The translations under genes and the position numbers were made by a program. This document shows, piece after piece, positions 2,605 to 27,280 of a stretch of 27,388 nucleotides of DNA (the first letter of the stretch is position 1; the number at the start of each line of letters is the position of its first letter). A model generated the notes under the pieces. That model was not told where the DNA came from, did not search any database, and saw nothing but the letters and a program-made list of their open reading frames with translations. Source of the DNA: Thermoplasmatota archaeon (GTDB taxonomy: Archaea > Thermoplasmatota > Penumbrarchaeia > Penumbrarchaeales > Penumbrarchaeaceae); assembly GCA_965234725.1 (NCBI GenBank), contig CBDDUX010000113.1:1-27388 (forward strand), given 5' to 3'.

Positions 2605-2686
2605 ACTGTATTAAGAATGGGTTGATTTCAATGGAAAATGATATCTATCCTTTTTAATAATCGTTTAGAGACCGGAAGAAGGACCT

Positions 2687-3373: not shown

Positions 3374-3458
3374 TGATGTAATGGATAAGGTCCTTCGGTA
3401 TTACCTGTGTTTTGGGGATCGGATTAATAGCAGTCATTCCATTGTATCAACGGATACA

Positions 3459-4013: not shown

Positions 4014-4026
4014 TCTTACCATCAAA

Positions 4027-5404: not shown

Positions 5405-5405
5405 T

Positions 5406-6377
5406 TTAATCCTCCAAAAGAGCCCCCCCACAGGAGGAACCAGCTCCAGCAGTGCATCCAAAACAATGGGTTCCGGTGTTGATGATCCTCTTATCCAACA
5501 CTCCTGATCCCATTATATGAGAAGTATGATATGAAACGACTCCAAGACCCAAGGCCTGGTTGAAGTCACAATCGTATATCTTACCATCCCATCCGACATT
5601 GATCTGATAACGACACATCAAACCACCAATGGTTGAAGGATTGAAATTATTCTTCAGGAGGTTGATATATGCCTCATCCTTGCCGTTCTTCTTCAGATCC
5701 TCAATGAACCTGCCCAGAGGCATATTGGTTATTGTGAACAGTTCTGTGAAATCAATGTCGAAATCCTTCTTCAATATCTCCTTGTATTCCGCCTTCAGTG
5801 CCATCTGAGGCGGGGGGAGGAAATCAGCCATCGGATTGAAAACAAGGTCAATTTTGAGATCCTCCGATCTTCCATATCCAAGTGAGTTGAGAAATTTCAA
5901 TCCCTCGATCGATTTTTCGAAGACCCCATCACCTCTGACACAATCGACCTCAGCTTTCTCGTAACAGGGAAGGGAAGCAATGATCTCCAACGAATTGTCA
6001 GCATAGAATTTTGCCAAATGGATGTGCTCATCCGATATGAGGTTCGTTAGATTGGTCCTGACCATGATATGTTTCCCTTCTCTCTTGAGAGCAGTGATGA
6101 ACTTCTCAAGAAATGGGTGTTCCTCAGGTGCACCACCCGTGATATCAATGGTCTTGACATCTCCATCCTTGGCAAGATCGATTATCCTCTCCATTGTCTC
6201 CCAGGACATCATCTCTTCCCTTTGAGGACCTGCTCTGTGATGGCAATGGGTGCACTCCTGGTTGCACTTCAATGTGATATTGGCCTGGATAGTATGGATC
6301 TCCTTGGTGTCAACATCAGGACCCGTATTTTCCATTACAATTTCCCTGAAATCATCCATAAAGGCTACTTTCGGCAT
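5406..6377 (-). CDS. arsS: ArsS-like radical SAM / Cys-rich domain protein (TIGR04167, DUF3641 C-terminus)
   Basis: CNQECTHC radical-SAM triad; IDITGGAPE; VRTNLT; ASLPCY; LVFNP; ITNMPLGRF; LMCR..I.VGWDG.IYDCDFNQ; C-terminal HCFGCTAGAGSSCGG. Confidence 0.88.
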   Translation of the reverse strand: MPKVAFMDDFREIVMENTGPDVDTKEIHTIQANITLKCNQECTHCHHRAGPQREEMMSWETMERIIDLAKDGDVKTIDITGGAPEEHPFLEKFITALKREGKHIMVRTNLTNLISDEHIHLAKFYADNSLEIIASLPCYEKAEVDCVRGDGVFEKSIEGLKFLNSLGYGRSEDLKIDLVFNPMADFLPPPQMALKAEYKEILKKDFDIDFTELFTITNMPLGRFIEDLKKNGKDEAYINLLKNNFNPSTIGGLMCRYQINVGWDGKIYDCDFNQALGLGVVSYHTSHIMGSGVLDKRIINTGTHCFGCTAGAGSSCGGALLED

Positions 6378-6439
6378 GGATATTTACCTGTTTTGGTTGG
6401 GGGCTATCCCATACGGTTTTTCTTAACCTTAGATTATCA

Positions 6440-9400: not shown

Positions 9401-12400
9401 ATTCGGATTCCATGTGTTGGATTTTGGATCCGCCTTGCTTCCATCCTTCCAATCACTGTCATCAGCATCGGGAGTACCGTCATTGTCCTCGTCATACGGG
9501 TATGTATCAACAGAGTCTTCGATGCCATCATTATCATCATCATTGTCCTGACCATCGTTCTCTCCATCATTATCATGGTCCTGAGGATGATAATCATCCC
9601 CGTCCTTTATTTTGTCATTGTCATCGTCGATGTCAGGACCGTTCGGGATTCCATCGTTATCGAGATCATCGGGATATGTGTCGTTCTCGTTCTCTATTCC
9701 GTCACCATCCCTGTCTGGATCTACATGGTTTGGATACCAGTCGTTGTCGAAATCTATCCTCCATGGATCGCTCGAATCCGGGTTTCCGTCACCGTCATCA
9801 TCATATTCAATGGAATTGGCATATCCATCATTGTCGGTATCCAACATGAAGAGTGGCTCCTCCTTGTTGGGTATTCCGTCTCCGTCTATATCGTCATCAA
9901 CATCGTCCTTGAATCCATCAATATCCATGTCATCGGGTGGAATTTCCACGAAGGGATTTCCCCCCCAGTTCGGAAATATTGAAGCGGAGAATATTTCCCA
10001 TTCAGGAGGAGGTGAGAAATCAAGGTCGATATGGAAGACCTTATCGTATCCAGAGATGAATACCCTGCAAGTGAAGGGTGTGAAACTGAAAAACAGCTGA
10101 GGGGATATTCCTATCTCAAGAACATCACCTCCATACAGTAGACCGTGATTCACAACAGGATCATTGTTAAGATAAGAAGCGTATTTATCCTCTGGATAAA
10201 CCTTCAGGTCTGTTATGGTATCATCAATGTTCTCAATTCTTATCCTCTTCTCCAGAGTATAAGGATCCATTGAAACCTCTGTCACTGTAAGATTAACGAA
10301 AACGTGATCAAGATTGACCCTCATGATCGAATAATCCTTCAGAGGTTCCTCTCCATCTTCAGGAATTGTTGTAAGGTTCAGAACGAGATTGTGGTCGATA
10401 TCTTTTGCATCCTGTGCATGGATTGCAAGTTTGAGGTAATATGAATTTCCCGGAAGTGTTGACATCACCTTATCGTTAGATCCTGTCCCGATGAATCCTA
10501 CTATGAGATCATCGTGAGGATTATCAACAGTAACCTTGATCTGATGAACCTTATCATCGATATTCTCCACATAGATCAGAACCTCCTGATCATAATCCCT
10601 ATCGATCCTCTGGTGGTGGATCCTGTGTTTGAATATCACTCCCGTGCCGATGGTGATCTCCCTAACCTCACTCTGAGATGAGCCATACGGTGAAGTAGAT
10701 TCAACATAGAATTCGTAAGTTGTATCCCTATCAAGATCTGTGATATTCACAATATGCTCCCTATCATCTGTTCCGTTGAATATATCATATTCAGATTCAC
10801 CTTCTTCTCTGATATGGACCAGACTCGTGGTTTCAATTGCAGTTCTCCATGTGAACATCATATTTGTGGTTCCAAAATTGTCCCCATTATTCGGTCTGAG
10901 ATCCAAAATGACAGGGTCGGTCGTTATTGAAATGTACGCGGATATAATCTGGTTGATATCATTTAACTCAGAATATATGAGCAGATCAATTTGTACTGTT
11001 CCACTATCAGCATCGAGAGGGATGATAATTGACACATCGATGTACTCATATTCTCCAGGGCCTATGTAGAGTTCATCCTTTCCGAATATGACCCAGGATG
11101 AATATGGATCTTCAGCAGAAAGGTCGAACCAGTCCTCGATGAAAGCATCATTTCTCAATTTCAGACCCAGGACTATCTCCTCTCCAACAGTAGCATCGAC
11201 CTCATAGGGGTAGAGGGATAACATTGTGGTGATGGAGGGAGAACCTCCTTCCACATCGGTAAAAGACCCCATTCCACCATCGGACCTTATGTAGGAGACC
11301 TGATAGAAATAATGCTTACCAGTTTCAAGATCGGAATCCCTGAAATTGGATGAAGAGGAAGTTCCTATCAATTCCATATCAGTCAAATTGAAATTGAACA
11401 GCTGGGAAGATGGAATTGTCATCCTAGGTTCACCTGGACTATCAATCTCAAGAGAAACTACGGCACTCAGGGAGTGTTCAAAATAATCTAACCTGATCTG
11501 ATGATACCCTTTGATAAGTGTTTTTATCCCCCTGTTTTCAGTCACCCCGTGGTTTCGCCAATCATCTATTATCAGGTCGCCATCCAACCATAATCTTACA
11601 CCATCATCTGACTGAGTGAATATCTCATGATCGCCATCTCTGTCGATCTTCAAATAACCGTTCCAGCTGACAGAGAAGGAGTTGATATCAACTCCAAGCA
11701 ATGGTGAACCTACCTCCCAATCGAAATCTATCTCTTCATCATTCCTGTAACCGACCAGATCGGTCAGATTCTCATTATTATAGTAAGCACCCAGAAGACC
11801 ATTGTTCACTTTCGAACTGTCTACTCCGTACACGTTGTAATGATCGAGGTCAGGATCATTAACATCATCCCATGAGAGATCAAGGAAACCACTTCCGGAT
11901 GTGATCTCAAATCCAGTTATTGGGAGTTGATAATTGTTATACAATTCCCCAATATTAGAGCTGTTAAGGTAGGTTTCCAGTATCAGGACCTCATCTAATG
12001 AACCGACAAAACCTTGTCCTGATTCGAATCCCCCACCAACGCTATCCTGCTCATAACCCAGAACAAGGGATCCACCTTGCTCGATGGATTCTCCTGTTGA
12101 AACCGTCCCTGAATCTTCCTCCACTCCATCAACATAAAGGACAATGTTTCCATCAGAACTTCTCCATGTAAATGCAAGATGATGCCAATCTCCATCTCTA
12201 ATATCCTTCACCACGGTGAAATCTTGGGGCCAATCCACCTCAATTGTGATATACCCATCAATGTAGATAAGGACCTCATTATCCTCACCGGGGACAGCAT
12301 AGGACAGAACATGATTTCTGAAATCATCATCTGCTATCTTTATCCAAAAGGCGATGGTAAATTCACTATCGGGCATATCGAAGGGGTTGCAGATAATGAG

Positions 12401-12706
12401 GTCCTCCACCCCATCGAAATCCAAACAGGTCCCATTAACTCCCTGTCCCCATCTTGGATCCCTCTCATCCTCTTGTTCATCTAAACCCATCCTTGCATCC
12501 CAACCGTTTCCACTTGAATCCGCTAGGACCTGGCCTGAACCTTCATTGAATCGATAATGAACAACCATGTCTCCAAGATCAACTGATCCAGCATCCTCGA
12601 ATGAAATAAGGATGAAAAATGATGTGAGGACCATCATTATAGCCACACTTAAAGACCTTGCTTTCAAGAATAGTGGAAGACCGTTCCTTTTCTCCATTCC
12701 TAACAT
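6440..12706 (-). CDS. Giant modular cell-surface protein: signal peptide, LamG/pentraxin-like, FN3 with nested PA14, Ig-like domains, TSP3-like Ca-binding repeats, internal hydrophobic segment, six-blade propeller-like region, CARDB, Big_5-like, C-terminal TM
   Basis: ORF open from 12757; ATG 12706 follows GGGGGA and precedes a signal-like segment. LamG-like HYRFNEGSG..DGDWHHLAFTW..FVGSLDEV; PA14 GLLGAYY..IDFDW..FSVSWNG..SDDGVRLWLDG; DxDxDG repeats; Asp-boxes SNDRGNSW and SFDLGDSW; CARDB ATIRNQG..VVVDE..E..EDNN; TM WWIIPILILILIVIIIGVVVFI followed by KLNRK. Confidence 0.85.
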   Translation of the reverse strand: MLGMEKRNGLPLFLKARSLSVAIMMVLTSFFILISFEDAGSVDLGDMVVHYRFNEGSGQVLADSSGNGWDARMGLDEQEDERDPRWGQGVNGTCLDFDGVEDLIICNPFDMPDSEFTIAFWIKIADDDFRNHVLSYAVPGEDNEVLIYIDGYITIEVDWPQDFTVVKDIRDGDWHHLAFTWRSSDGNIVLYVDGVEEDSGTVSTGESIEQGGSLVLGYEQDSVGGGFESGQGFVGSLDEVLILETYLNSSNIGELYNNYQLPITGFEITSGSGFLDLSWDDVNDPDLDHYNVYGVDSSKVNNGLLGAYYNNENLTDLVGYRNDEEIDFDWEVGSPLLGVDINSFSVSWNGYLKIDRDGDHEIFTQSDDGVRLWLDGDLIIDDWRNHGVTENRGIKTLIKGYHQIRLDYFEHSLSAVVSLEIDSPGEPRMTIPSSQLFNFNLTDMELIGTSSSSNFRDSDLETGKHYFYQVSYIRSDGGMGSFTDVEGGSPSITTMLSLYPYEVDATVGEEIVLGLKLRNDAFIEDWFDLSAEDPYSSWVIFGKDELYIGPGEYEYIDVSIIIPLDADSGTVQIDLLIYSELNDINQIISAYISITTDPVILDLRPNNGDNFGTTNMMFTWRTAIETTSLVHIREEGESEYDIFNGTDDREHIVNITDLDRDTTYEFYVESTSPYGSSQSEVREITIGTGVIFKHRIHHQRIDRDYDQEVLIYVENIDDKVHQIKVTVDNPHDDLIVGFIGTGSNDKVMSTLPGNSYYLKLAIHAQDAKDIDHNLVLNLTTIPEDGEEPLKDYSIMRVNLDHVFVNLTVTEVSMDPYTLEKRIRIENIDDTITDLKVYPEDKYASYLNNDPVVNHGLLYGGDVLEIGISPQLFFSFTPFTCRVFISGYDKVFHIDLDFSPPPEWEIFSASIFPNWGGNPFVEIPPDDMDIDGFKDDVDDDIDGDGIPNKEEPLFMLDTDNDGYANSIEYDDDGDGNPDSSDPWRIDFDNDWYPNHVDPDRDGDGIENENDTYPDDLDNDGIPNGPDIDDDNDKIKDGDDYHPQDHDNDGENDGQDNDDDNDGIEDSVDTYPYDEDNDGTPDADDSDWKDGSKADPKSNTWNPNPAPGGSPGNFGGGGGSDSAGGDDWYCTNKPELDLAELLVFLVELGLIFVGLITGIAAAGATAACMWGLLGIVGGFIKDAAIGAASSAAENFFGFSTHDMKVGAARWAINTFSRGSDNDIMGSTRGPEDAYRYRDVTPETTRGNPLTVINSKGVHYVWQEKVNGVSQIFYAQSDSPIKNPKEEVMVTNSSIDSVDPYLHSNGGMFLVYAENGPSSSEVLIRQMESDGTWGKPYSVATSTGMVHEPRYDRDNDGLFHVVWSDSRYGNYEIMHTYTISYMYSFHLPERITNTDGHSLQPAIVVDASDRSHIVWSDSDGMSREIYHVRSNDRGNSWGSIEVISSSGTRASEPTMVLTRLGTIHVAWSDHRHDETEIYYSKSFDLGDSWEDEVRITDDDSYSELPELNYYDENLILLWHDDRTNLDLRYFKTYNSSSDEWSLMKRMPSGIPTIDSLFFEIQLTPDGDEGDVKPHDLYLYLDDILLGSIKNEVPEGKYIFEIPLDVLSAAAYQMKEGKLKLKSKHMNPGHYVVAANWKLTWHYTYDDTYLSAPDQYTADMYLRENMSDHWLTEDPAIYANDISLSDRLPEVDDVVDISATIRNQGGISATGINVRFYEQEPGNASRLIGEQTVKAIGSHESVTVIMKWNATRYTTRIYVVVDEAGLVNELIEDNNIAFMRLNVVVMEPPVGTISINEGDPYTGETRIFISFNSESANEVTHYSLSNDNSTWSDWKELLDYVSWYLEGITRTTGDSGVERTVYAKFKDIAGLESEVYSSTIEYYPDAPVVVKTSMDDGEVGVESSISIEFSNPMDDAATRSAFSIEPKVDGSFTWVNSTLYFIPTDGWTADETYKISIFHAAGDFSGRELETDHNWTFVAKEGIVDDDDPPPVDSDGDGMPDAWEDLHGLNKTDPSDATLDLDGDGISNVDEFKGGTNPEQIDAKDDDDGNDGDNDSGGSVWWIIPILILILIVIIIGVVVFIKLNRKDDLEE
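9455..9935 (-). repeat. Tandem ~29-aa Asp-rich thrombospondin type-3-like repeats (about five units) inside the giant protein
   Basis: Recurrent DxDNDGxxNxxDxDxDGDGIxDxxDxYP pattern, e.g. DLDNDGIPNGPDIDDDNDKIKDGDDYHP and DHDNDGENDGQDNDDDNDGIEDSVDTYP. Confidence 0.8.
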
Positions 12707-12975
12707 AAAAATCCCCCAAAGATCATAAAAAATTGGATTTCCCAACCGATGATACATACATCTTGACTGATATATTTTTTTCCAATGTATTTGGAAATGA
12801 ACCTTCGATAAAAATTAGATTGGTTTATAACTTGATTTTCAATTAAATATTTGCCATAGATATCAATTTGCGAACTTTAAAAAGAACCATTAAATAATAC
12901 TGTCTGGATTGAATCTTACGTATCATTATCCTCATTTTTTACTATAATGCAGGTTGAAGATGAAATGGTGAAAAA

Positions 12976-13338
12976 ATGACAAAAGAACCTCACTGTATTG
13001 AAGCAATAGGTTTGGAATCTCGGAATATCTTCATGGGACTTGTAAAAGCAAGAAGAGGTTTGAAAACCGGTCAAATCATCAGAAATGAACTTCTAGACCT
13101 AGTACTCGAAGCAAGGTCATCCGGTTCTATTGATAAGATGGAAAAAGTAGCGATAATCTCAAGGGACCTATCCAGATCAGAGAAAATTGCATTCCTGGAG
13201 GACCTTGCAAAAGATCTTGAAATTGCCATTGAGAGCTTTGATATAGAAAAGATGGATAATATATTGAATGAATTCATAGACCTTTCAGATCCATACAATA
13301 ACGAGGAGAAGGATGAGGGTGGAGATAATGTTTGTTGA
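12976..13338 (+). CDS. Small helical hypothetical protein resembling the C-terminal tail of hybrid sensor kinases
   Basis: 120-aa ORF whose 3' end overlaps the kinase start; ends LEDLAKDLEIAIESFDIEKMDNILNEF; preceded by an AT-rich intergenic region. Confidence 0.6.
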   Translation: MTKEPHCIEAIGLESRNIFMGLVKARRGLKTGQIIRNELLDLVLEARSSGSIDKMEKVAIISRDLSRSEKIAFLEDLAKDLEIAIESFDIEKMDNILNEFIDLSDPYNNEEKDEGGDNVC

Positions 13339-14503
13339 AGAAAGCCAGGTCAACGTTCTTATCGTAGATGACGTTTCAAAGAACATCCAGGTACTGGGAT
13401 CGATACTCAGAGAGAAAGGGTACCATATCTCTTATGCGACGAACGGAAAGGATGCACTGGCGAAAGTAAAGAATTCAAAATTCGATATTATCCTTTTAGA
13501 TGTGATGATGCCGGAAATGGATGGTTTTGAGACATGCAGGAGATTGAGATTGGAAAGGACATCTCAGGATATCCCTGTGATCTTCCTTACCGCTAAGACA
13601 GATGAGGATTCGAAGATGAAGGGATTCGATGTCGGGGCACAGGATTATGTTACAAAACCGTTCAATACTCCAGAACTGATAGCAAGGGTGGACACCCATG
13701 TTCAACTGAAAAAGGCCAGAGATGAAATGGTCTTCATGAACAAGCAGTTAGAACAGGTTAACATTCTCAGGGAATCAATACTTAAACAGCTGGAGGAGAC
13801 CAACAGGAAATTGAAGGATTCAGACAGTATCAAGAACGAGTTCATATCCATACTTTCACACGATATGGGAACACCGATCACCGTCATCAAAGCAAACCTG
13901 GAGATGATACAGGAGATCTATCTGGGATCCCTGGACGATAATCTGAAGAGGATCATGAAGACCATGGAAAGGGCCTCTGAGGCCCTTGAAAGGCTCCGGA
14001 TGGATACCCTTGACCTCTCAAGGATGGACCTGGGAACAATGGAGTTGAATATGGATGAGTTCGATCTTTCACAGTTGATCGAAGAGGCAGCGGATAGCAT
14101 TAGAGGTCCCGCATCAAAGAAATTGCAGTCTGTTAATGTGGATACGGAAAGACCCCTAATGGTGAAAGGTGATATGTTCAAATTGCGTAGGGTTCTCAAT
14201 AATTATATCTCAAATGCACACAGGTATTCCCCCGATGGAAAAGGTTTCAGTATTACTGCATCACGAAAAGGCAATGATGTTCAGGTAGAGGTCAAGGACA
14301 CAGGCAGGGGAATAAAAAAGGAAGAACTGGAAAAAGTGTTCGAGAGATTCTACAGGACAGGCAAGAGGGTCGAGGGAAGCACGGGCCTGGGTCTGGCTAT
14401 TGTCAAGGGGATCATCAAGGCCCACGGCGGTAGATCCTGGGCCGAAAGCGAGGGAGAAGGAAAGGGTTCCAGCTTCTTTTTCACCATTCCGTTGTTATCT
14501 TGA
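13328..14503 (+). CDS. Hybrid response regulator / histidine kinase (REC-coiled coil-HisKA-HATPase_c), cytoplasmic
   Basis: REC: VLIVDD, IILLDVMMPEMDG, IFLTA, DYVTKPF. H-box SILSHDMGTPI; N-box NNYISNAHRY; G1 VKDTGRGI; F-box VFERFYR; G2 GLGLAIV. ATG 13328 follows GAGGGTGGAG. No TM segment. Confidence 0.93.
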   Translation: MFVEESQVNVLIVDDVSKNIQVLGSILREKGYHISYATNGKDALAKVKNSKFDIILLDVMMPEMDGFETCRRLRLERTSQDIPVIFLTAKTDEDSKMKGFDVGAQDYVTKPFNTPELIARVDTHVQLKKARDEMVFMNKQLEQVNILRESILKQLEETNRKLKDSDSIKNEFISILSHDMGTPITVIKANLEMIQEIYLGSLDDNLKRIMKTMERASEALERLRMDTLDLSRMDLGTMELNMDEFDLSQLIEEAADSIRGPASKKLQSVNVDTERPLMVKGDMFKLRRVLNNYISNAHRYSPDGKGFSITASRKGNDVQVEVKDTGRGIKKEELEKVFERFYRTGKRVEGSTGLGLAIVKGIIKAHGGRSWAESEGEGKGSSFFFTIPLLS

Positions 14504-14535: not shown

Positions 14536-16002
14536 TTAGGAAATCGATCCCTTTTTATCTGATCTCTCACTGTCCTTCTTTTTAATCAGTTTCCTTAAGA
14601 AGATCCTGAGCCAGGTATATCCGATAATTGCACCCAACCCATTTCCAAGAAGGATACCGAACCAGACACCAACGAGTCCCCAGCCAAAGACGATACCAAA
14701 GAGAATGGAAAACGTCAAGGCAAGGACTATTGTTCGGATCAAGGTCACAAAAAGTGAATTGAAACCTTTTCCAATGGCCTGGAATGTTGCACTCGAGAGC
14801 ATGCCGAAACCAACCATGAAGTTCATCAGAACGAAGACCCTCAGGAAGATCACAAGGTCCCCTCTGAGATGGACCGAAGTGCTGGACCATGTGAAAGCAA
14901 GGACTATGAAATCAGCAAGTGCAAAGACGATTATCGAGATCGGTATCTCTATCATTAGACCTAACTTGATCGCATACCTGTGAACAAACCGTAACTTCCG
15001 GTATTTTCCAGCCCCGAATGCAGCACCGGCAACCGATACGACTGCCGTGGCGATTCCCATCATGGGAAGTGTCGCCATGGATACCACCCTCCATCCGGTA
15101 GAGAATATGGCGACCCCGTCGGTACCTCCAACGGTTACCACAACCACATTAAGGACCATCATGTTGATGGCCATCGACATCTGCATAAGAGATGCTGGAA
15201 CACCTACCCTCATGATATCCTTTAGAATATTCAAACTGGGTTTGAACTTACCAAGTCCGAACGTTACAAAGGTATCCTTTCTGAAGAAAAGCCAGTAGAA
15301 GAGGAGAAGTCCTGTCACACCGAAGGATAACATTGTGGCCCAAGCAGCGCCTGAGATACCCATACCTAACAGAGGCAGAGATAGACCCTTTGAAACAGGA
15401 AGACCCATACCCGATAATACACGGCCGAACATGAAGTCGTCATAGATGAAGAGGGGATCAAGTACAATGTTCAGGGCAGAACCGAGAACCATTGCATACA
15501 TGGCCCTTTTTGTATCACCTTCGGCCCTGAGTATGGCATTTGCAATGTTCGTGAAGAAGATTATCAGAGAGAAACCGACTATTACCCTTCCGTAGCTCAC
15601 TGCCAATGGGGCAACCTCTCCGGCTTGGAACAGGTCGAAGATCTCGGGAAGGAAAATGAAGACCGGGATTGAAAACAAGACTGCGATCACAAACATCAAA
15701 ATAATCATATGGTCTGCAACATTGTCAGCTCCCTCCTTGTCACGACCCCCGATCCTTCTCGAAATTGCCGCACCGCCACCTACACCGATTCCCGTTGCAA
15801 GGGCCATTATTAGAAAGAAGAAGGGAAATACAAATCCAACGGCGGATAGGGAATCCGCTCCAAGCCCTGAAACCCATATCGCATCAGCGAGATTGTATAC
15901 AGTCTGCACCGACATCGCGATTATCATCGGGATCGATAGTTTGATGATGGCCTTCCTGGGATTTCCCAGAAGGGTCTTTACACCCTGGGTCTGGCCTTTC
16001 AT
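14536..16002 (-). CDS. MATE family efflux transporter
   Basis: IIKLSIPMIIAMSVQTVYNLADAIWVS; AILRAEGDTKRAM; LNIVLDPLFI; GMGISGAAWAT; FQAIGK; about 12 hydrophobic segments; 4-nt overlap with the upstream MarR gene. Confidence 0.93.
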   Translation of the reverse strand: MKGQTQGVKTLLGNPRKAIIKLSIPMIIAMSVQTVYNLADAIWVSGLGADSLSAVGFVFPFFFLIMALATGIGVGGGAAISRRIGGRDKEGADNVADHMIILMFVIAVLFSIPVFIFLPEIFDLFQAGEVAPLAVSYGRVIVGFSLIIFFTNIANAILRAEGDTKRAMYAMVLGSALNIVLDPLFIYDDFMFGRVLSGMGLPVSKGLSLPLLGMGISGAAWATMLSFGVTGLLLFYWLFFRKDTFVTFGLGKFKPSLNILKDIMRVGVPASLMQMSMAINMMVLNVVVVTVGGTDGVAIFSTGWRVVSMATLPMMGIATAVVSVAGAAFGAGKYRKLRFVHRYAIKLGLMIEIPISIIVFALADFIVLAFTWSSTSVHLRGDLVIFLRVFVLMNFMVGFGMLSSATFQAIGKGFNSLFVTLIRTIVLALTFSILFGIVFGWGLVGVWFGILLGNGLGAIIGYTWLRIFLRKLIKKKDSERSDKKGSIS

Positions 16003-16439
16003 GCCATTCCCTCCGCATTCCTTTCAAGTTTTGATAGTAGATCCAGCAAATACTCCTTTTCATCTTCAGGAAGTCCCCTGGTCAATCCTGAGGTCCATTC
16101 ATCAAGGATGGTCTTCAATATTGGTTTGAACTTGAGACCCTTATCAGTGACATGGAGATGGTGGACCCTTCGGTCCTCCTCATCCCTGGTCCTTGTGACA
16201 TAACCCTCGGTCTCCAATTTTTTCATTGCCCGGGCAGTTGTCGCTTTATCCACCATCAACTTCTCGGTGATCTCATCTTGGGAGGCTCCTTCCATCCTAT
16301 AAAGAAAAAGCAGGAAGATATACTGTCCTGAACCCAGACCATAAGGTTCCAGAGCACGGCTGAGATATATGTTCTTGTAAACGTTCAAGCGTGATATATA
16401 ACGCCCGAAAGACTTCGCCGGAGCAGGTTCGGACACCAT
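15999..16439 (-). CDS. MarR family transcriptional regulator (ATG 16439 preferred over 16487)
   Basis: LEPYGLGSGQYIFL; SQDEI..VDKATTARAMKKLETEGYVTR..DRRVHHLHVTDKG winged helix. A minus-strand TTATATAT lies 26-33 nt upstream of ATG 16439. Confidence 0.92.
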   Translation of the reverse strand: MVSEPAPAKSFGRYISRLNVYKNIYLSRALEPYGLGSGQYIFLLFLYRMEGASQDEITEKLMVDKATTARAMKKLETEGYVTRTRDEEDRRVHHLHVTDKGLKFKPILKTILDEWTSGLTRGLPEDEKEYLLDLLSKLERNAEGMA

Positions 16440-16464
16440 GAGGTATAAAGTGTATACCTGGTCC

Positions 16465-16516
16465 ATATATAATGGTTGCGTGCGCAACTATTTTCTCTGG
16501 ATGTTGTTCGCGCAAA
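16465..16516 (-). promoter_or_regulatory. TATA box plus palindromic operator(s) upstream of marR-MATE
   Basis: AATGGTTGCG-TG-CGCAACTATT (16471-16492; one mismatch in 10-bp arms) abuts the minus-strand TATA (16465-16472); a degenerate second copy GTTGTTCGCGCAAA is at 16503-16516. Confidence 0.65.
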
Positions 16517-20956: not shown

Positions 20957-21037
20957 CTGAACCTTCTTGGAATATAATGATGGCTATTAATCTATACGGT
21001 CCGTAAAAGTTCTCTATTGATAAATATCACAAAACTG

Positions 21038-21087
21038 TTTTATATGTTGGGCTGGGCTAGTTGACCATAGGACTATTCGATGGTCAA
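21038..21087 (+). promoter_or_regulatory. TATA box and 8-bp inverted repeat upstream of the wHTH-KaiC-like operon
   Basis: TTTTATAT at 21038-21045 preceded by purine-rich CAAAA; TTGACCAT-N11-ATGGTCAA at 21061-21087. Confidence 0.5.
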
Positions 21088-21096: not shown

Positions 21097-21576
21097 ATGA
21101 AAAGGCCTAAAAGGAGAAGCATGAAGGAGTCCAAAACGGACATGATAGCCTCTATCTTCACCTCCAGGCCCCTTGACCTTGTTTCTCCCAAGGATGTCTC
21201 CTCTGAGCTGAAAATGGACCTTCAACTGGTCACTTCCATCATGAGCAGGCTCCGTTCGGAAGGTCTCATAGAAAGGGTTGGCTGGGGCCAATACAAGTTG
21301 AAGATGGAATCCAATATCGAGAATAGATATCTGGAGGACATCAACAGGGAACTGAGGGACATGGCATCCATGATCCTGGGCAGGACGGCGATTCTCGACG
21401 GCATCCAGAGCAACGGTGATCCCTTCAAGGAATTGATAGGATTATACAGTTCCCTTAGAAAGATCGGAGGAGAAGCAATGGCCTCCAATCTATTGAGATT
21501 ATGCGCTAAGAAGATCCTCCTTGCTGATAAAGTGGATGTCCTGATCGAAAGTGTTGGTGAGGTGATGGAGGAATGA
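21097..21576 (+). CDS. Winged-helix DNA-binding domain protein with C-terminal helical domain (ATG 21097 preferred over TTG 21061)
   Basis: VSPKDVSSELKMDLQLVTSIMSRLRSEGLIERVGWGQYKL is a wHTH with wing; ATG follows AGGTGTGGAG; ATGA overlap with the next gene. Confidence 0.75.
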   Translation: MKRPKRRSMKESKTDMIASIFTSRPLDLVSPKDVSSELKMDLQLVTSIMSRLRSEGLIERVGWGQYKLKMESNIENRYLEDINRELRDMASMILGRTAILDGIQSNGDPFKELIGLYSSLRKIGGEAMASNLLRLCAKKILLADKVDVLIESVGEVMEE

Positions 21577-21884
21577 GCGTAATTGCTCACACTTTCGGAC
21601 TAGATACTTATGGAGAGGCATTACCTCCTCTGCTGGTCAAATTCGAGGAAGGTCTGGCAACCTATATCGGTGTACTGTCAAAGTTCATAGTCAAACGACA
21701 GTTCGAACTTGTGGTTCCAGGTGGAAATAATAATTTAACAGCTGAAACTGCCAAAATGGTATCCGACTCGATCCTTGAGGAGGCATCCCTTCTCATTGGA
21801 AGCGGCAGGACCGAGGAACTTAGATCCAAATTCAGATTTCTTATTGACTATCAATTCAAGGAGGTAAATTCCCATGGAAGATAG
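21573..21884 (+). CDS. Small helical hypothetical protein
   Basis: ATG follows GGAGGA; overlaps both neighbours; LATYIG..SKFIVKRQ and ASLLIG helical motifs. Confidence 0.75.
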   Translation: MSVIAHTFGLDTYGEALPPLLVKFEEGLATYIGVLSKFIVKRQFELVVPGGNNNLTAETAKMVSDSILEEASLLIGSGRTEELRSKFRFLIDYQFKEVNSHGR

Positions 21885-22596
21885 GAAGGCAACACACATT
21901 CCGGGTCTGGACGAACTCATAGGCGAAGGTTTCCCGGATGGCACTATAAATTTGATTACTGGACCAGCGGGCAGCGCAAAGTCGCTTTTCGGAATCCACT
22001 ATGTTTACAATGGTGCAAAGATAGATGACGAAACGAGCATATATCTGACACTCGAGGAGAGCAGGGAATCCATTCTCAGGGCCGCCAGATCATACGGAAT
22101 GGACCTGGAAAGCCTCGAGAAAGATGGTAAGGCCTACCTTATCGACCTGGGAAAAATGAGGATCGAATGCTCATCTTCCGAGGAATTGGAATGGGGCCTA
22201 GCTAGTTTCGAGACCCTGCAGGACTTCCTGAAGAACCATATTACATTCAGCGGTGCTACAAGACTGGTCCTGGATTCTGTGACAGCGGTGGGCGTATATT
22301 ACAAATCGAATGAATTGCTCCGAAGAGAGCTCTTTAAATTCTCAAGGTTCTTAAAGGAATCCGGGATCACATCGATCATTATCTCTGAAGTGACTGGTGA
22401 AAGCGATACCAGGTATGGTATAGAGGAGTTCATTGCGGACTCTCTGATCAAGATGGATTATGAATCCACCGCCGGGGAATACAGAAGGACCTTGACCGTG
22501 AAGAAGATGAGGTTCACCAAGCACGACCCCCTCAAACATCCTTTTCTGATAATGGACAATGGGATCGAGGTATCTCCAGACGAAGTGATCGGATAA
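21874..22596 (+). CDS. KaiC/RAD55-like RecA-superfamily ATPase, single domain
   Basis: THIPGLDELIGEGFP; Walker A GPAGSAKS; YLTLEE; Walker B RLVLDS; YGIEEFIAD; RTLTVKKMR; SD GGAGGT. Confidence 0.9.
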   Translation: MEDRKATHIPGLDELIGEGFPDGTINLITGPAGSAKSLFGIHYVYNGAKIDDETSIYLTLEESRESILRAARSYGMDLESLEKDGKAYLIDLGKMRIECSSSEELEWGLASFETLQDFLKNHITFSGATRLVLDSVTAVGVYYKSNELLRRELFKFSRFLKESGITSIIISEVTGESDTRYGIEEFIADSLIKMDYESTAGEYRRTLTVKKMRFTKHDPLKHPFLIMDNGIEVSPDEVIG

Positions 22597-22615
22597 GAAC
22601 GATTGGTGAGAACAG

Positions 22616-24649
22616 ATGACCGACCTGCTGACCTATGGAAAGCTCATTTCGAGCTTCATCCGAAAGATGACATCTCCAGAGATAGGTCAGTTCAGACTTG
22701 AAATATCCACATTCAGGATAATACTGGAAAGGGCCAGGATCGAGAATCCAAAGCTTGTCAAGTTCTCAATAACCGATAGTGGAGAGATCGTCAACAACCT
22801 AAAGGATGAGGAATCTTCCTTGAAGGTCCTCTCCTCCTTCTTGCAGAAATCCCTGGATTTCATATCCTCATTGATCGGTGAGGAGCTGGCAAGGGACATC
22901 ATATCCTCAGCGATGAAGGATGAGATATCGGATCTGTCGACCGAGGTGAGGGGAAGAGAGATCCTACTTGAACATATACCCGAACCCTTCAAAACAGCCC
23001 TGATAGATGCTATGGAGAAGAGAGAAGGTACTTCCGATCATGAGGAGATCATCAACCTGTTCCAGGAGGTCATCCAGGCCTACCTCAAGGACCTATCCAC
23101 CCATACTGATCTATCTGCGTTCAAGCTAAAACTCTCAATAATGAGAGAGAAGTTCACCCTTTTGAAATATGTAGAACTTTCCAAGGATAATTCCATTAAG
23201 ATCGACAAGGAGAGATGGGCATCCGCCGAACAGGAAGATGTCAGGATGGCACTTGCAGCTCTTTTCAACTCCATGGTAGGTCTTTCCACATTCCTCCTTG
23301 GTAAAGAGGAAGCAGTAAAAAAGGCCTCAAGGGTCTTCCAGTACTATTTCGATGGCAAGGATGAACTTCTGGAAAAATATCACCTCCAGGAGGATATCTT
23401 AGACGGTGCCCTCAACATGAAGGTCTCCACCGGAGTAGAGGTCCTTGACATGAGAATGGGGGGAGGAATACCAAAAGGAGCATCGATCCTGCTAATATCT
23501 CCATCGGGTATCGAGAGGGACATATTCATCTCCAATCTCCTTAACAAAGGTTTGAACAATGGTTCCTCGGCCTTGATGGTTCTTTCCAAGGAACCACCCA
23601 GATCGATAAGGATGCTTCTCAGATCCAACGGACTGGATCCGGATGAGCTCGAAGAAGAGGGAAGGTTCAGGATCGTAGATTGGTTCAGCTGGAGGGGGGA
23701 GAGGATAATAGGGGTCGAAAGGGACGGTCATGCCCTGAAATCATCAAAGATCCTTTCCAATCTTGGAATAGCGATCAACAAAGGTCTGAGGGAGCTGACT
23801 TATTCCACTACTAAGGTCGGGATAATCCACATAATAGGTCCTGCTACCAACATCTTCGAGTTCAACCAGGTATACAACTTCATCCAGAGGCTCAGGGCTA
23901 AGTTCAAGGATGACGAGATGGCGTCCATCTTCCTGCTGGAGAAGGATTCCCTCTCAAAGGACCTGGAATCCAGGATCCAGGAGATTTTCGATGGAACTCT
24001 TGAGATAAACAAGGAGATGGTAAAGGGTAAGTTCCAGAGGGAAATGGTCATCAGGTCGCTTTCGGGTGTGGACTTCGATGCCAATCCGCTTCCTTTCCAG
24101 ATCAGGGACAATATGATAATTCCCGAAGGATCGGAGATCGAAGATCTCCAAGTCCCGAAACCTCCCAAGAAACCCACCCCCATTCAACAACCGCGGGTTG
24201 AGGTCGAGGAAACCCCCATATCGAAAGATGACAATGATATCAGGTTAGAGGAAGATCTGGTTCCAGAGTTACCCGAGCTGGAGGAGATGGAAGAGATAAA
24301 AGAGGAGATCCCTGAAACAAAGCTAAAAGTTAAGAGAATGATCAAGAGAAGGATCAAGGAGCAACCGAAGGGTAATGATCTGATTGACCAAATCAAGACA
24401 TCTCCGAATGAAAAGAAGGTTACACCTCAGAAGAAGGTCCGTCTGCTAAAAAGGAAAATTATCAGGAAGGGTCCCAAGAATAGTGAAGACAGGGTTACTA
24501 TCGACCCCGATCTTGAGGGGATGGACCTGGGATTCAAAAAGAACGATCCCAAAGAAGTTCTCTACGAAGCCCTGGAGAACATAGATGAACTTCTGGAAAA
24601 TGAAGATATCTTCTCTTCCTCCGAGAAAAAGAAGAAAACCTTAAATTAA
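22616..24649 (+). CDS. Fusion protein: two N-terminal helical repeats, degenerate KaiC/RAD55-like ATPase domain, charged low-complexity tail
   Basis: KVSTGVEVLDMRMGGGIPKG KaiC-like start; Walker A position SPSGIERD has no Lys; RIVDWFS; Walker B position GIIHII has no Asp; EIFDGTLEI; Pro/Glu/Lys-rich C-terminal ~170 aa. Confidence 0.82.
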   Translation: MTDLLTYGKLISSFIRKMTSPEIGQFRLEISTFRIILERARIENPKLVKFSITDSGEIVNNLKDEESSLKVLSSFLQKSLDFISSLIGEELARDIISSAMKDEISDLSTEVRGREILLEHIPEPFKTALIDAMEKREGTSDHEEIINLFQEVIQAYLKDLSTHTDLSAFKLKLSIMREKFTLLKYVELSKDNSIKIDKERWASAEQEDVRMALAALFNSMVGLSTFLLGKEEAVKKASRVFQYYFDGKDELLEKYHLQEDILDGALNMKVSTGVEVLDMRMGGGIPKGASILLISPSGIERDIFISNLLNKGLNNGSSALMVLSKEPPRSIRMLLRSNGLDPDELEEEGRFRIVDWFSWRGERIIGVERDGHALKSSKILSNLGIAINKGLRELTYSTTKVGIIHIIGPATNIFEFNQVYNFIQRLRAKFKDDEMASIFLLEKDSLSKDLESRIQEIFDGTLEINKEMVKGKFQREMVIRSLSGVDFDANPLPFQIRDNMIIPEGSEIEDLQVPKPPKKPTPIQQPRVEVEETPISKDDNDIRLEEDLVPELPELEEMEEIKEEIPETKLKVKRMIKRRIKEQPKGNDLIDQIKTSPNEKKVTPQKKVRLLKRKIIRKGPKNSEDRVTIDPDLEGMDLGFKKNDPKEVLYEALENIDELLENEDIFSSSEKKKKTLN

Positions 24650-24682
24650 AGTATCTGGCACTCCAACATAGAGGGTTAGTGC

Positions 24683-25189
24683 TTGTTAGAGATCTTCAAG
24701 ATAAAATCAAGGGATAACGGAGACTGTATTGGTTCGGTGATCTATCGTGAAGGTACCCTTCTCGTTGATTGTTCTACCTGCAGTGGACCTTGTTCCCTTT
24801 CAGAGATCAGATGTTTCAAAGGTCTATCCGGGAGGATCGTACCCGGTTTTTCTGGAGAGATAATCCTTTCAAGGATCGAGCAAAGGGGTTATTCCGGTCC
24901 CATTGTGGAGGTGCTTGATTCCTATACAGAGATACTGTCACTATTCAAGGGGTCAGGAACAGAAGCCAGAACAGATATATTGAAGATAATTAAGCGATCG
25001 GAAGAATGTTTCAAAGAGGACCCTTCTCAGTTTATTAAGATGTCAAAAATGTATAAAAAAGAGCTTGCAAGGTCCAAGGCTGGTGATGATCTGATACCTC
25101 ATTTTGATGATATCATTGAGAGGTGCGACATACTGATGAGGAAATTGAACATGACAGCCGAAGGACAGTCGATTTTAATACCCAAATAA
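24683..25189 (+). CDS. Hypothetical protein with CxxCxxxCx6C motif
   Basis: LLVDCSTCSGPCSLSEIRCF..IILSRIEQRGYSG; TTG start after GAGGG; same strand, 33 nt after the previous stop. Confidence 0.7.
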   Translation: MLEIFKIKSRDNGDCIGSVIYREGTLLVDCSTCSGPCSLSEIRCFKGLSGRIVPGFSGEIILSRIEQRGYSGPIVEVLDSYTEILSLFKGSGTEARTDILKIIKRSEECFKEDPSQFIKMSKMYKKELARSKAGDDLIPHFDDIIERCDILMRKLNMTAEGQSILIPK

Positions 25190-25203: not shown

Positions 25204-26199
25204 ATGGAAGCCCCTCTTGAAAGGGAAGGAATGAACGTCCTTGAAGAGATCAAAGAGGATCCGAGGTATGGAGTGTCCCCATGGGATCGGAGCATTGAGG
25301 ACCTCCTGAAGAAGGGTATGGTGGTCATAGACAAGCCTAGAGGACCTACCAGCCATCAGGTGGTCTCATGGATCAAAGGTATTCTGGGAATTGAGAAGGC
25401 CGGTCATCACGGGACACTCGATCCGAATACCACAGGTGTCCTTCCCGTAGCGCTGGGAGACTCGGCAAAGCTTCTGGATACTACCCTGAGCGGAGGGAAG
25501 GAATACATTACGATCATGCACCTTCACTCACCGGTCAGCAAGGAAAGCCTACATGGTGTTCTTTCGGATTTTACGGGTGAGATATATCAGATGGTCCCGG
25601 TCAGATCAGCTGTAAAGAGAGGTCTCAGGACAAGGACCATGGAATACATCAAGCTCCTTGAGACCGAAGGTAACGATCATCTTATTCTGATCGGTTGCGA
25701 GTCAGGCACCTATATCAGGACCTTACTTCACGATATGGGAGAAGTTCTTGGAGTAGGAGCAAATATGACAGAACTGAGAAGGACCCGCTCCGGGAAGATC
25801 CGAGAGGACCGGTCCGTTACCCTGCAGGAATTGAGGGATGCATGGGAATTATGCAAGGAAGGGGATGAGACGCTCTTCAGAAAGGTCGTCAGGCCTGCCG
25901 AGGAACTGGTGTCCCATTTAAAGTCAATTGTGATCAAGGATTCAGCTGTTGACGCGGTATGTCATGGGGCTCCTGTGGGGTTACCCGGTCTTGCCGGTGT
26001 CGAGAACGGTATCAAGCAGGGAGATACCATTTCCATCCTCACACAGAAAGGGGAGCTTGTCGCGCTCGGCACCGCAGATATGGACACTGTTAAGATGATG
26101 AGATCTGGCAAGGGTCAGGCTGCATCACCATCCAGGGTCCTGATGGAGACTGGCACATATCCCAGAGCGTGGAAAACCAGAAGTAAAAGCGGGCAGTGA
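25204..26199 (+). CDS. cbf5: Archaeal Cbf5 / TruB-family pseudouridine synthase with PUA domain (ATG 25204 preferred)
   Basis: YG..P.DRSIEDLLKKG; IDKPRGPTSHQV; GHHGTLDP catalytic Asp; KEY; GEIYQ.VPVRSAVKR; CESGTYIRTL; ELRRTRSG; PUA IKDSAVDAVCHGA; YPRAWK. TTTTAATA at 25173-25180 suggests a leaderless start at 25204. Confidence 0.95.
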   Translation: MEAPLEREGMNVLEEIKEDPRYGVSPWDRSIEDLLKKGMVVIDKPRGPTSHQVVSWIKGILGIEKAGHHGTLDPNTTGVLPVALGDSAKLLDTTLSGGKEYITIMHLHSPVSKESLHGVLSDFTGEIYQMVPVRSAVKRGLRTRTMEYIKLLETEGNDHLILIGCESGTYIRTLLHDMGEVLGVGANMTELRRTRSGKIREDRSVTLQELRDAWELCKEGDETLFRKVVRPAEELVSHLKSIVIKDSAVDAVCHGAPVGLPGLAGVENGIKQGDTISILTQKGELVALGTADMDTVKMMRSGKGQAASPSRVLMETGTYPRAWKTRSKSGQ

Positions 26200-26256: not shown

Positions 26257-26346
26257 TTTTATATCCCAGAACGGAATATAAGGCCCGTTGGGAACAAAGT
26301 CCAGTGAAGTGTTGCTCACTGTACCTGGACATGCCCCACGGAGGTG
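26257..26346 (+). promoter_or_regulatory. TATA box, structured 5' leader and strong SD of the downstream surface-protein gene
   Basis: TTTTATAT 26257-26264; CCGTTGGG (26285-26292) pairs with CCCCACGG (26334-26341); GTCCAG (26299-26304) pairs with CTGGAC (26325-26330); SD GGAGGTG 26340-26346. Confidence 0.5.
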
Positions 26347-26353
26347 GAACCAA

Positions 26354-27280
26354 ATGATCGGAAAAAATGCTTTCAGAGTAAGCATCTTCCTGGTAATGGT
26401 CCTGATGCTTGGGTCGCTATTCGTATATCTTCCCAAGGAGAAGGATGAGGCCGATGCGGTAGGTGCTCCTGCCGTCAGGATAGAACTTGCACAGACCAAA
26501 CAGACAGCTTACGTTGCTCCCGGACAGGATGGAATCGTCACGTTTACCGGACAGGTGACAGCCACAATTCCATGGTCCCCGAATATCCAGTACCTTGTGG
26601 TCACCTTGATGGCTGATGCTGGCGGCTGGGCGGTTTCAGTTCCTCCCTCATTGATCTTCAGCAAAGCCCAGAAGCAGCAGAGCTTCACCCTCTCGGTGCA
26701 GGTCCCGGTAGAGACCTCACAGAAGACCCAGGGTCAGCTCTCTGTATCAGGGAAATGGAGATACAGCCCAGGATCACTCGGAGGGTCCATCGACCCTGCC
26801 ACTGCCATTATCGTGGTCAAGCAGTACTACCAGTTCTCAATAGGATGTGAGAAGCCCTACGTTCAGGTAGGTCCTGGGTCCTCGCTTGGATTCCAGATAA
26901 GGCTTATCAATGAGGGGAATTCCGCAGACAGGCTAAGAGTGGAGATCACCAACCTGGACAAACTTGCTGACATGGGTTGGACCATTCAGCTCTCTCAGGA
27001 TAAGTTCTCTGTCCCTGAGAAGCAGGAGAAGGTCCTCACAGTGTCGGTTACCACTCCGGTGGAGTGGAATGTCTGGAAGAACAAAGTGGACACCATCAGG
27101 TTGAGGATCGTATCCGCACAGGCAGAAAGCCTGGGGGATATATCGGACATCGCGGATTATTCTCTATACATACGTCAACGTGGTTTCTCGATACCGGGCT
27201 TTGAACCGGTACTTGCCATGATGTCCCTGATCATCATTGCGGTCCTACTTGTGGGATTCGCAAAGAGGAAGAGGGCCTGA
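26354..27280 (+). CDS. Secreted Ig-like surface protein with PGF-CTERM-type anchor (choice-of-anchor T-like)
   Basis: ATG 26354 after GGAGGTG; N-terminal signal (KNAFRVSIFLVMVLMLGSLFVYL); beta-rich body with NEGNSAD Ig motif; C-terminal IPGFE + hydrophobic helix + KRKR, the tripartite archaeosortase-type signal. Confidence 0.8.
   Translation: MIGKNAFRVSIFLVMVLMLGSLFVYLPKEKDEADAVGAPAVRIELAQTKQTAYVAPGQDGIVTFTGQVTATIPWSPNIQYLVVTLMADAGGWAVSVPPSLIFSKAQKQQSFTLSVQVPVETSQKTQGQLSVSGKWRYSPGSLGGSIDPATAIIVVKQYYQFSIGCEKPYVQVGPGSSLGFQIRLINEGNSADRLRVEITNLDKLADMGWTIQLSQDKFSVPEKQEKVLTVSVTTPVEWNVWKNKVDTIRLRIVSAQAESLGDISDIADYSLYIRQRGFSIPGFEPVLAMMSLIIIAVLLVGFAKRKRA

Follow-up and report, generated by a model that had tools for sequence, protein, structure and literature searches.

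The window analysed here is the whole of contig C113 (CBDDUX010000113.1, 27,388 nt) of a Thermoplasmatota archaeon whose genome of 3.5 Mb is 97.65% complete. It carries five co-oriented open reading frames (ORFs), g1 to g5, among them a KaiC-like ATPase gene and a gene for a protein with an inactivated KaiC domain (iKaiC). A sequence-only reading of this DNA had taken the five genes for a single, self-contained ATP-dependent switch. We consider it slightly better than an even bet that the region combines two things of different origin: a KaiC/iKaiC cassette, g1–g4, with a promoter of its own, and a gene, g5, that is not integral to it. The features concerned are listed below in window coordinates.

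21019–21046, + strand: conserved promoter/operator element GATAAATATCACAAAACTGTTTTATATG, kept upstream of g1 in 17/17 loci
21097–21576, + strand: g1, 159 aa, winged helix-turn-helix (wHTH) at about residues 25–68, basic N-terminus, C-terminal helical domain
21573–21884, + strand: g2, 103 aa, of no known family, probably helical
21874–22596, + strand: g3, 240 aa, single-domain KaiC-like ATPase, PF06745
22616–23410, + strand: N-terminal domain of g4 (residues 1–265), tandem helical units in an AlphaFold2 model
23417–24130, + strand: iKaiC domain of g4, from a PF06745 match and motif replacement
24131–24649, + strand: tail of g4, from an alignment of 17 sequences and its composition
24683–25189, + strand: g5, 168 aa, TTG start, assigned to a family of accessory/N-terminal domains of T2SSE ATPases
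25204–26199, + strand: cbf5, H/ACA pseudouridine synthase (Pfam DKCLD, TruB_N, TruB_C_2 and PUA)

All five ORFs, the junctions between them and the TATA box 5′ of g1 were found where the sequence-only reading had placed them. An ATGA overlap joins g1 to g2 and an 11-nt overlap g2 to g3, while gaps of 19 and 33 nt separate g3 from g4 (whole ORF 22616–24649, 677 aa) and g4 from g5. The TATA-like TTTATAT lies at 21039, 58 nt 5′ of g1. An alternative opening of g1 exists at TTG 21061, and a Shine-Dalgarno-like AAGGTG stands before the ATG at 21097. Clear GGTG/GGAGG-like Shine-Dalgarno motifs precede each of g1–g4 and a weaker GAGGG precedes g5. From g1 to the end of cbf5 there is a single run of five or more T, inside g5. 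Since cbf5 starts 14 nt past the g5 stop without an intervening T-run terminator, the end of the transcription unit at g5 is in doubt and the unit may run on into cbf5, probably a co-transcribed neighbour outside the cassette. Assembly of two sediment metatranscriptome runs of one study gave contigs covering small parts of the window. Two of these (22278–22681 and 22507–22734) bridge the g3/g4 junction with 0–2 differences and a third lies inside g4, which is compatible with co-transcription of g3 and g4.

We searched 401 Thermoplasmatota genomes, 23 of them of the same family, and compared the gene neighbourhood of 17 orthologous loci. The arrangement recurs in these 17 related genomes and is not a chance feature of one genome. 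Wherever contigs reach, the order is Hps-RraA, MfnA, g1, g2, g3, g4, g5, cbf5 and a PGF-CTERM protein gene. Genes g1, g3 and g4 were present in all 17 loci, which span six genera, with neither insertion site nor orientation varying, and g5 and cbf5 in all 15 loci extending that far. Full-length g4 orthologues occur in 17 of the 23 same-family genomes; in G017 a contig breaks off within the gene and leaves a fragment. Close g3 orthologues (E ≤1e-45) occupy the same 17 genomes of the family as the g4 N-domain; in the entire sample they were found in 25 genomes and the g4 N-domain in 22. Relatives of g4 were also met in public metagenome-assembled genomes (MAGs) titled ‘Thermoplasmatota archaeon’ or ‘Thermoplasmatales archaeon’, among others, in agreement with the earlier guess at the phylum. 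With the queries used, g1, g3 and g4 were found neither in one genus (G005, G011, G015 and G019; 76–90% complete) nor in the sister family genome G024 (94% complete). In three of these genomes, G015, G019 and G024 (loci L119, L115 and L118), the locus reads Hps, MfnA, g5, cbf5, PGF-CTERM; a fourth cassette-less locus (L114, of G011) ends inside cbf5. Judged by this comparison, g1–g4 is one unit, a lineage-specific cassette. To this extent the earlier idea of a unit stands: g1, g3 and g4 co-occur, g2 accompanies them in 14 of the 17 loci, and a promoter/operator is conserved with them.

That element is 25 nt long, with the consensus gA.AA.TATCACAaAA.TGTTaTATAt, and lies 5′ of g1 in every one of the 17 loci, where the g1 upstream regions are otherwise unalignable. 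Its core, TATCACAaAA.TGTTaTATA, shows 0–1 mismatch in all of them. It forms an imperfect dyad over the TATA box, ATATCACA-N4-TGTTTTAT here, with TGTTATAT as the second arm in relatives. At ≤1 mismatch the cassette's own site is the only one in the 3.5-Mb genome, and the element is absent from the four cassette-less loci even with 4 mismatches allowed. As g1 probably binds this dyad over the cassette's own TATA box, at least autoregulation would be expected. A wider regulon was considered and rejected: allowing 2 mismatches added two sites, close to the number that chance provides (an estimate of ~0.5 or more for an AT-rich 17-mer).

The product of g3 matched PF06745 over profile positions 3–230 of 231 (E 2.6e-62; 210.7 bits, cut-off 26.6). 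Its best PDB matches were to the CI half of cyanobacterial KaiC, residues 22–248, in an end-to-end alignment with E of about 1e-55. It stayed under every curated NCBIfam cut-off, those of archaeal KaiC subfamilies and ArlH included (ArlH 43.6 bits, cut-off 215). Its motifs lie as follows.

21961–21984, + strand: P-loop GPAGSAKS, with Ala where the canonical Gly precedes Lys
22045–22062, + strand: catalytic EE in LTLEES, from motif position
22264–22278, + strand: Walker B in LVLDS, from motif position

Both LTLEES and LVLDS were invariant among 14 g3 sequences; following the KaiC literature, we take them to hold the catalytic Glu pair and the Walker B Asp. The canonical Walker A GxxxxGK[ST] does not occur in g3: Ala stands before Lys in 17 of 18 family members, with Lys-Ser kept. 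Exceptions to GPxGSAKS are one family member with GPPGSGKS and an orthologue at locus L050 with APSGGGKT. The ‘intact ATPase’ of the sequence-only reading is thus sound for the EE pair and Walker B, and not for the P-loop, which is deviant. Among genera g3 is the most constrained gene of the cassette, with 69–97% identity against 37–92% for g1, 42–75% for g4 and 25–77% for g2. The whole genome contains 19 PF06745 matches. Other KaiC-like paralogues, on contigs C10, C27, C48 and C60, carry GTPGTYKS, GPPGSLKS, GYTGTLKS and GPPGSMKS, in which Lys-Ser and EE are kept and the Gly before Lys is replaced. Non-canonical P-loops are therefore shared by an entire group of KaiC proteins in this lineage.

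The g4 protein consists of a helical N-domain, a dead KaiC domain, a variable tail rich in Lys, Glu and Pro, and a conserved terminal helix. Residues 270–501 matched PF06745 (E 1.7e-20, 73.8 bits). The term iKaiC and iKaiC fusions appear in PMC5847659. A KaiC fold whose nucleotide-binding and catalytic motifs are lost is what we found at residues 268–505. The Pfam matches and the destroyed Walker A bear out the proposal that a KaiC-like ATPase adjoins an inactivated KaiC copy. The replaced motifs, a signature and the terminal helix, all from the alignment of 17 sequences, are given here.

23498–23521, + strand: SPSGIERD in place of Walker A
23585–23599, + strand: SKEPP in place of the catalytic EE
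23678–23692, + strand: DWFSW signature, invariant
23822–23842, + strand: IIHIIGP in place of Walker B
24557–24601, + strand: terminal amphipathic helix VLYEALENIDELLEN, with ILxEAIxTIDxLLE kept in 15 same-family sequences

The AlphaFold2 model of the N-domain (predicted local distance difference test, pLDDT, 86.4; predicted template modelling score 0.52) has two tandem helical units with one β-hairpin each. Foldseek returned no PDB match to it at E ≤0.001. In VIA-align wide the best Z was 6.5, with death-fold rows at Z 4.5–5.2, within noise, and the best score in a protein-atlas search was 0.76, under the level counted as more than a lead. The tail holds 20 Glu, 20 Lys and 15 Pro among 135 residues; neither its length nor its sequence is conserved in the alignment, and it is presumably disordered. 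It is missing from the distant g4 homologues at L031 and L032 (513–516 aa), and those at L049 and L050 (537–550 aa) end shortly after the iKaiC domain. For the iKaiC domain itself the Pfam scan gave a sub-threshold MEDS match (16.4 bits, cut-off 29.8) and no DUF835 match. A split KaiC, with g3 as CI and the g4 domain as CII, was rejected, the g4 domain being equally like both halves (27.6 and 31.5 bits). Domains shared between the small proteins and g4 were likewise rejected: hhalign comparisons of the g1, g2 and g5 profiles with g4, and of g2 with g1, all gave probabilities <1%. A second family of ~710 aa with a central dead KaiC-like domain (C28:17706–18350 in the same genome) is unrelated to g4; it has GPAYSGRRT at the P-loop position, and its orthologues of 703–720 aa occur in many genomes of the family and class.

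The two small proteins are lineage-restricted. For g1, Pfam wHTH matches were sub-threshold only (MarR_2 16.1 bits, cut-off 27), and a profile of 13 orthologues matched the MarR-family structure 6jbx with E 0.0022. Some orthologues carry precomputed PF12802 or PF13412 matches and the NCBI name ‘MarR family’. Together these matches suggest that a wHTH protein leads the unit, as first proposed. The C-terminal helical domain of g1 is conserved and bears an invariant GG..(M)A.NLLRL motif. A relationship of g1 to the 206-aa wHTH protein of the giant-protein loci described below was rejected, as only 32 recognition-helix columns align (hhalign probability 23%), and a comparison of g2 with that protein found nothing. 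The conserved motifs of g2 are LIGVLSRFIV and EEAS.LIGP.R..EL; it had no match in Pfam, NCBIfam or PDB, and its best protein-atlas score, 0.85 to bacterial DUF8082, was too low to count for more than a lead. Searching 5.8 billion proteins, we obtained 46 clusters for g1, for which all organism names given were Thermoplasmatota MAGs, and only 16 for g2; by these counts both families are confined to this lineage. Gene g2 occurs in 14 of the 17 orthologous loci, and a six-frame hidden Markov model search did not find it in L020, L027 and L029; its proposed role as adaptor is to that extent not supported. Complex prediction for g3, g1 and g2, with g2 as partner, gave scores of 0.56, 0.00 and 0.00 in runs without folded controls, which speaks for binding no more than against it.

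The behaviour of g5 is different in kind. Its AlphaFold2 model (pLDDT 83.7) comprises an N-terminal Cys-containing β domain (residues 18–70) and a four-helix bundle (73–159). The name ‘Cys4 protein’ given earlier is right as to a Cys-containing domain and not as to the number: in 14 sequences C30, C33 and C44 alone are invariant, C15 is common and C37 is not conserved. No match was found in Pfam, nor in PDB at E ≤0.001 for the model (Foldseek); in VIA-align wide the helical bundle reached a best Z of 8.3, generic for four-helix bundles. Both structure searches barely probed the β domain. A profile of 14 orthologues retrieved 59 matches among 1.84 billion representatives. These include the T2SSE ATPases P0036, P0042 and P0050 (701–783 aa; E 1.3e-5 to 5.9e-4), which have the g5-like domain at the N-terminus and PF00437 in the C-terminal half. 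With a broader profile, the family was found in 153 of the 401 genomes of the phylum, as proteins of ~170–240 aa or as the head of ORFs of ~700–860 aa (many at 696–862 aa). Outside the order, 16 of 16 stand-alone g5-like genes fetched lie directly upstream of a T2SSE ATPase gene on the same strand (−153 to +92 nt), and a TadC-like gene then follows in 15 of them. A peptidase U32 gene (~630–645 aa) divergently flanks this g5-like/T2SSE/TadC operon in 8 of the 16 loci (L100, L102, L105, L106, L107, L108, L110 and L117; five confirmed with Pfam and three matched by BLAST).

This T2SSE/TadC adjacency was not found in the window or in L114, L115, L118 and L119, where g5 precedes cbf5. The g5–cbf5 adjacency extends across the whole order, cassette-less L115, L118 and L119 included, with gaps of 14–51 nt where measured. 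The genome has a single g5-like gene. Orthologous ATPase and TadC-like genes (35–43% identity, E down to 1e-120) lie on its contig C4, with no g5-like gene beside the pair, and the C4-type ATPase was present in 5 of 5 cassette-less genomes tested. The g5 of this family is also without two further CxxC pairs carried by the wider family. On profile and neighbourhood evidence, g5 is a member of the accessory/N-terminal domain family of T2SSE ATPases, detached here. Two parts of the sequence-only reading accordingly give way: the five genes are not a self-contained system, as g5 stays beside cbf5 in relatives without g1–g4, and g5 is no metal/redox partner dedicated to the KaiC pair, as its family accompanies or is fused to T2SSE ATPases. 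As an observation apart, the essential gene for the H/ACA pseudouridine synthase may here be co-transcribed with one for a homologue of a secretion-ATPase accessory protein.

The reading of a four-gene cassette beside a non-integral g5 builds on the observed anatomy, conservation, presence/absence behaviour, promoter element and family membership of g5. How the proteins contact one another and the DNA, and which way the signal runs, we infer as follows. The g3 protein would form a nucleotide-binding oligomer of KaiC type, and g4 would be a soluble scaffold whose dead KaiC domain probably pairs with g3. The N-domain and tail helix of g4 may serve as docking surfaces, their availability depending on the state of g3. 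Nucleotide or phosphorylation state of g3 would then alter what the g3–g4 complex sequesters or releases, the candidate being g1. As the DNA-binding output, g1 would sit, probably as a dimer, on the conserved dyad over its own TATA box and be released from it, or recruited to it, by the g3–g4 complex. In this scheme g2 would be a dispensable small accessory protein lost in a sub-lineage. For its part, g5 would be read from the same strand, probably in the same transcript, and by family and phyletic pattern would be a partner of the C4 secretion ATPase. In this order it would have been separated from its ATPase, now on contig C4, and come to lie upstream of cbf5, the cassette being placed or inserted just upstream of it.

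Several observations weigh against this account. No interface was predicted or detected among the cassette proteins. Ala replaces the canonical P-loop Gly of g3 in 17 of 18 members, which leaves both its catalytic competence and its ATP turnover in doubt. As the dyad is imperfect and coincides in part with core promoter signals, its conservation could reflect the promoter alone. Within the family the housekeeping flanks are as collinear as the cassette, and synteny there has little weight; the presence/absence pattern amounts to one or two evolutionary events among kin. A FastTree of concatenated Hps, MfnA and Cbf5 leaves the cassette-less genus unplaced (support 0.13) and gain versus loss undecided. 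In genome G026 two separate short contigs carry the g3-like and the g4-like gene, and no g3 was found in the 3 kb upstream of the latter. RNA libraries can hold DNA, and a contig that bridges a junction is not proof of a single transcript. Finally, g5 is here probably co-transcribed with g4 (33 nt, same strand, no recognisable terminator), and a functional tie between them is possible.

In one alternative, which we regard as unlikely, the cassette and g5 would together control a type IV pilus-like secretion machine; g5, as the detached N-terminal or accessory module of the C4 ATPase, would be made under KaiC/iKaiC control and act on it in trans. In its favour are the C4 ATPase–TadC pair without its usual upstream partner, the family membership of g5, the usual position of that family before the ATPase, and the cassette lying immediately upstream of g5 in the same orientation. 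An association of KaiC-family genes with type IV pilus loci of archaea is, moreover, reported (Makarova, Koonin & Albers 2016; PMC4858521). However, g5 and the ATPase coexist in all five cassette-less genomes, which makes g5 independent of the cassette, and with up to 2 mismatches allowed no copy of the promoter motif turned up near the C4 ATPase. In a more specific form, to which we give equally little credence, a KaiC-type switch would have captured g5, once the regulatory head of a T2SSE ATPase and now detached from it. In this lineage g5 would be expressed from the cassette promoter and maybe held by g4, whose C-terminal helix may dock on the g5 four-helix bundle, and the nucleotide state of g3 would arm the C4 ATPase–TadC pair. 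If true, this would show concretely how KaiC hubs of archaea can be wired to machines of the type IV pilus kind.

Somewhat more doubtful again is the original proposal that all five genes form one ATP-dependent switch, with g5 as its dedicated metal/redox-sensing partner. Co-orientation, the 33-nt g4/g5 gap without a terminator-like T-run, the presence of g5 after g4 in 15 of 15 loci reaching that far, and the three invariant Cys of g5 all agree with it, and the loss of two CxxC pairs could mark a changed function. Yet g5 remains next to cbf5 in genomes without g1–g4; its family is tied to T2SSE ATPases in the 16 other loci and fused to them elsewhere; and the g4-like genes at L030–L032, L049 and L050 have no g5-like neighbour.

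We think it very improbable that g1–g4 is a mobile or defence-type island between mfnA and g5 without a role in host signalling. The cassette does behave as an insertion/deletion unit, its GC content is slightly below that of its flanks (0.46–0.47 versus 0.49–0.51), and g1 has weak matches to AbiEi-type wHTH domains. But site and orientation are the same in all 17 loci across six genera, and g3 is under strong purifying constraint. No ORF matching an integrase or transposase was noted in the loci, in a look that left repeats aside. With PADLOC defence models nothing was found for g2–g5, and g1 gave only weak, sub-threshold wHTH cross-matches (E 2e-4 to 2e-3). Hardly credible, lastly, is an RNA-handling ring of Elp4/5/6-type RecA fold made of the KaiC/iKaiC pair and working with Cbf5, for which the start of cbf5 14 nt past g5, possibly in the same transcript, and weak PAXNEB (Elp4) matches (g4 E 0.0013; L032 homologue E 0.00048) could be cited, but these matches reach 18–20 bits against a cut-off of 28, as expected between RecA-fold domains, the position of cbf5 is unchanged in cassette-less genomes, and the distant g4-like genes are not beside cbf5.

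Returning to the four-gene cassette, we found related pairs and fusions beyond the family; those that join g3 to g4-like genes, or a wHTH gene to the iKaiC domain, speak for the cassette. Shorter, tailless g4-like proteins with N-domain and iKaiC domain (513–626 aa) occur in three same-class genomes and two Halobacteriota MAGs. At L050, in a Halobacteriota MAG, the g4-like gene has a g3 orthologue with a canonical P-loop (E 6.6e-88) at a distance of 1 kb on its upstream side, and a receiver-domain gene separates the two. No g3 was found adjacent to the g4-like genes at L049 and L030–L032. In G029 a KaiC gene precedes a gene for a protein with two tandem g4-like dead domains. The DWFSW-type iKaiC domain also heads giant proteins in twelve soil Thermoplasmata loci (E 1e-42 to 1e-51; 1090–2283 aa where complete), and a 206-aa wHTH gene abuts the giant-protein gene in 4 of the 7 loci listed.

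Some further features of these loci may be recorded. At L050, 8027–8380 encodes a wHTH protein of 117 aa whose C-terminus bears a cluster of Cys, ~0.7 kb downstream of the g3/g4-like pair; before it stand genes that, judged from sequence, are glutaredoxin-like and Sm-like. The G029 pair just mentioned, a variant of the active/dead pairing, lies at C25:4315–6408; its KaiC has 242 aa and is 46% identical to g3, and the ORF with the two dead domains has 633 aa. At L052 of genome G035 (1349–6559), a tailless g4-like gene (516 aa, comprising the N-domain and a dead KaiC domain) stands before two genes of its own strand, for proteins of 789 and 421 aa that have terminal hydrophobic segments, no Pfam match and a surface-protein-like appearance.

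Among known systems, the cassette most resembles archaeal KaiC/iKaiC neighbourhoods, in which a single-domain KaiC stands beside a dead-KaiC protein and a wHTH protein and for which signalling, not a clock, has been proposed. Makarova, Galperin and Koonin reportedly treated KaiC with inactivated KaiC and a wHTH as an archaeal signalling theme in 2017 (mBio). In these general terms the arrangement is already described. The present cassette differs in that g1 and g2 are confined to one lineage and in that g4 has an N-domain without a match among solved structures, a presumably disordered tail and a terminal helix. Among the papers listed by a literature search on iKaiC and KaiC-like ATPases, judged by title and start of abstract and exclusive of Makarova et al. 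2017 and supplements, none deals with this cassette. New are the g4 architecture, the restriction of g1 and g2 to one lineage, an operator conserved with the unit, a link to the iKaiC subfamily of giant proteins and the identification of g5.

As regards cyanobacterial KaiABC, g3 aligns with KaiC CI and keeps the catalytic EE and Walker B Asp. In contrast to KaiC, it is a single domain without a CI-CII tandem, its P-loop is GPxGSAKS and it is partnered by a dead KaiC domain no closer to CI than to CII. A search of the 97.65%-complete genome for KaiB (PF07689) found none, with a positive control matched in Synechococcus. The earlier statement that this is not a canonical clock agrees with the single-domain g3 and the missing KaiB. 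As for KaiA, the sole PF07688 match (C2:33400–33594; 22.5 bits, cut-off 22.2) has two stop codons inside and a 60-aa frame, and we rejected it as spurious.

The giant proteins of soil Thermoplasmata share the iKaiC subfamily, with its DW[FY]SW and S[NK]L..I[NE]K signatures, and the wHTH gene at the head of the unit. Unlike them, the iKaiC carrier here is a soluble protein of 677 aa and not one of 1090–2283 aa, and the giant genes have no separate KaiC gene beside them in the fetched loci. In haloarchaeal gas vesicles, GvpD, a P-loop protein of KaiC/RecA fold, controls the transcription factor GvpE by protein contact. The present system departs from this pair in that the Pfam scan, read down to E ≤0.1, gave no GvpD family match and in that its transcription factor is of another type. 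Regulation of gas-vesicle expression by KaiC-family ATPases is also noted in PMC4858521.

Likeness to ArlH (FlaH)–ArlI and to KaiC genes linked to type IV pili, as described in PMC4858521, lies in a KaiC-fold protein near a T2SSE-related component. The difference is that g3 is well under the ArlH cut-off and that the window holds no secretion ATPase. The ArlH-like gene of the genome adjoins a T2SSE gene on contig C35, and all four T2SSE genes are on contigs other than the window. PMC4858521 also mentions that secretion ATPases of archaea carry a variable, Cys-rich domain at the N-terminus. The C-x2-C...C of g5 matches the N-terminus of the 701–783-aa T2SSE ATPases, and the published domain, compared here by description, may be of the same family; g5 differs in being a separate gene away from its ATPase.

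Many KaiC-like ATPases occur in archaea, and to our knowledge inputs, outputs or partners have been defined for very few of them. A compact cassette with a unique, sharply conserved 25-nt promoter/operator, a candidate DNA-binding output and a soluble pseudo-ATPase scaffold of separable domains would be a convenient entry point for the biochemistry of KaiC/iKaiC signalling. The shared iKaiC subfamily ties a cytoplasmic form of one module to a membrane form, that of the giant surface proteins. With g5 as a displaced member of a secretion-ATPase family, the operon model is corrected, and an unnamed family found in 153 of 401 genomes gains a context.

The rest of the window holds several genes of minor interest. 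The hybrid REC-HisKA-HATPase_c protein and the canonical MarR regulator beside a MatE efflux gene (13313–14503 and 15999–16487) are ordinary signalling and efflux genes without relation to the cassette. A 2105-aa ORF at 6440–12757 on the minus strand, with Pentaxin/Laminin_G_3, PA14, CARDB and Big_5 domains, is probably a giant surface adhesin. The PGF-CTERM surface protein gene at 26288–27280 carries an Ig-like FixG_C domain and has its own TTTATAT box at 26258; RNA-library depth was 13–17 at its start and 2–6 in the cassette.

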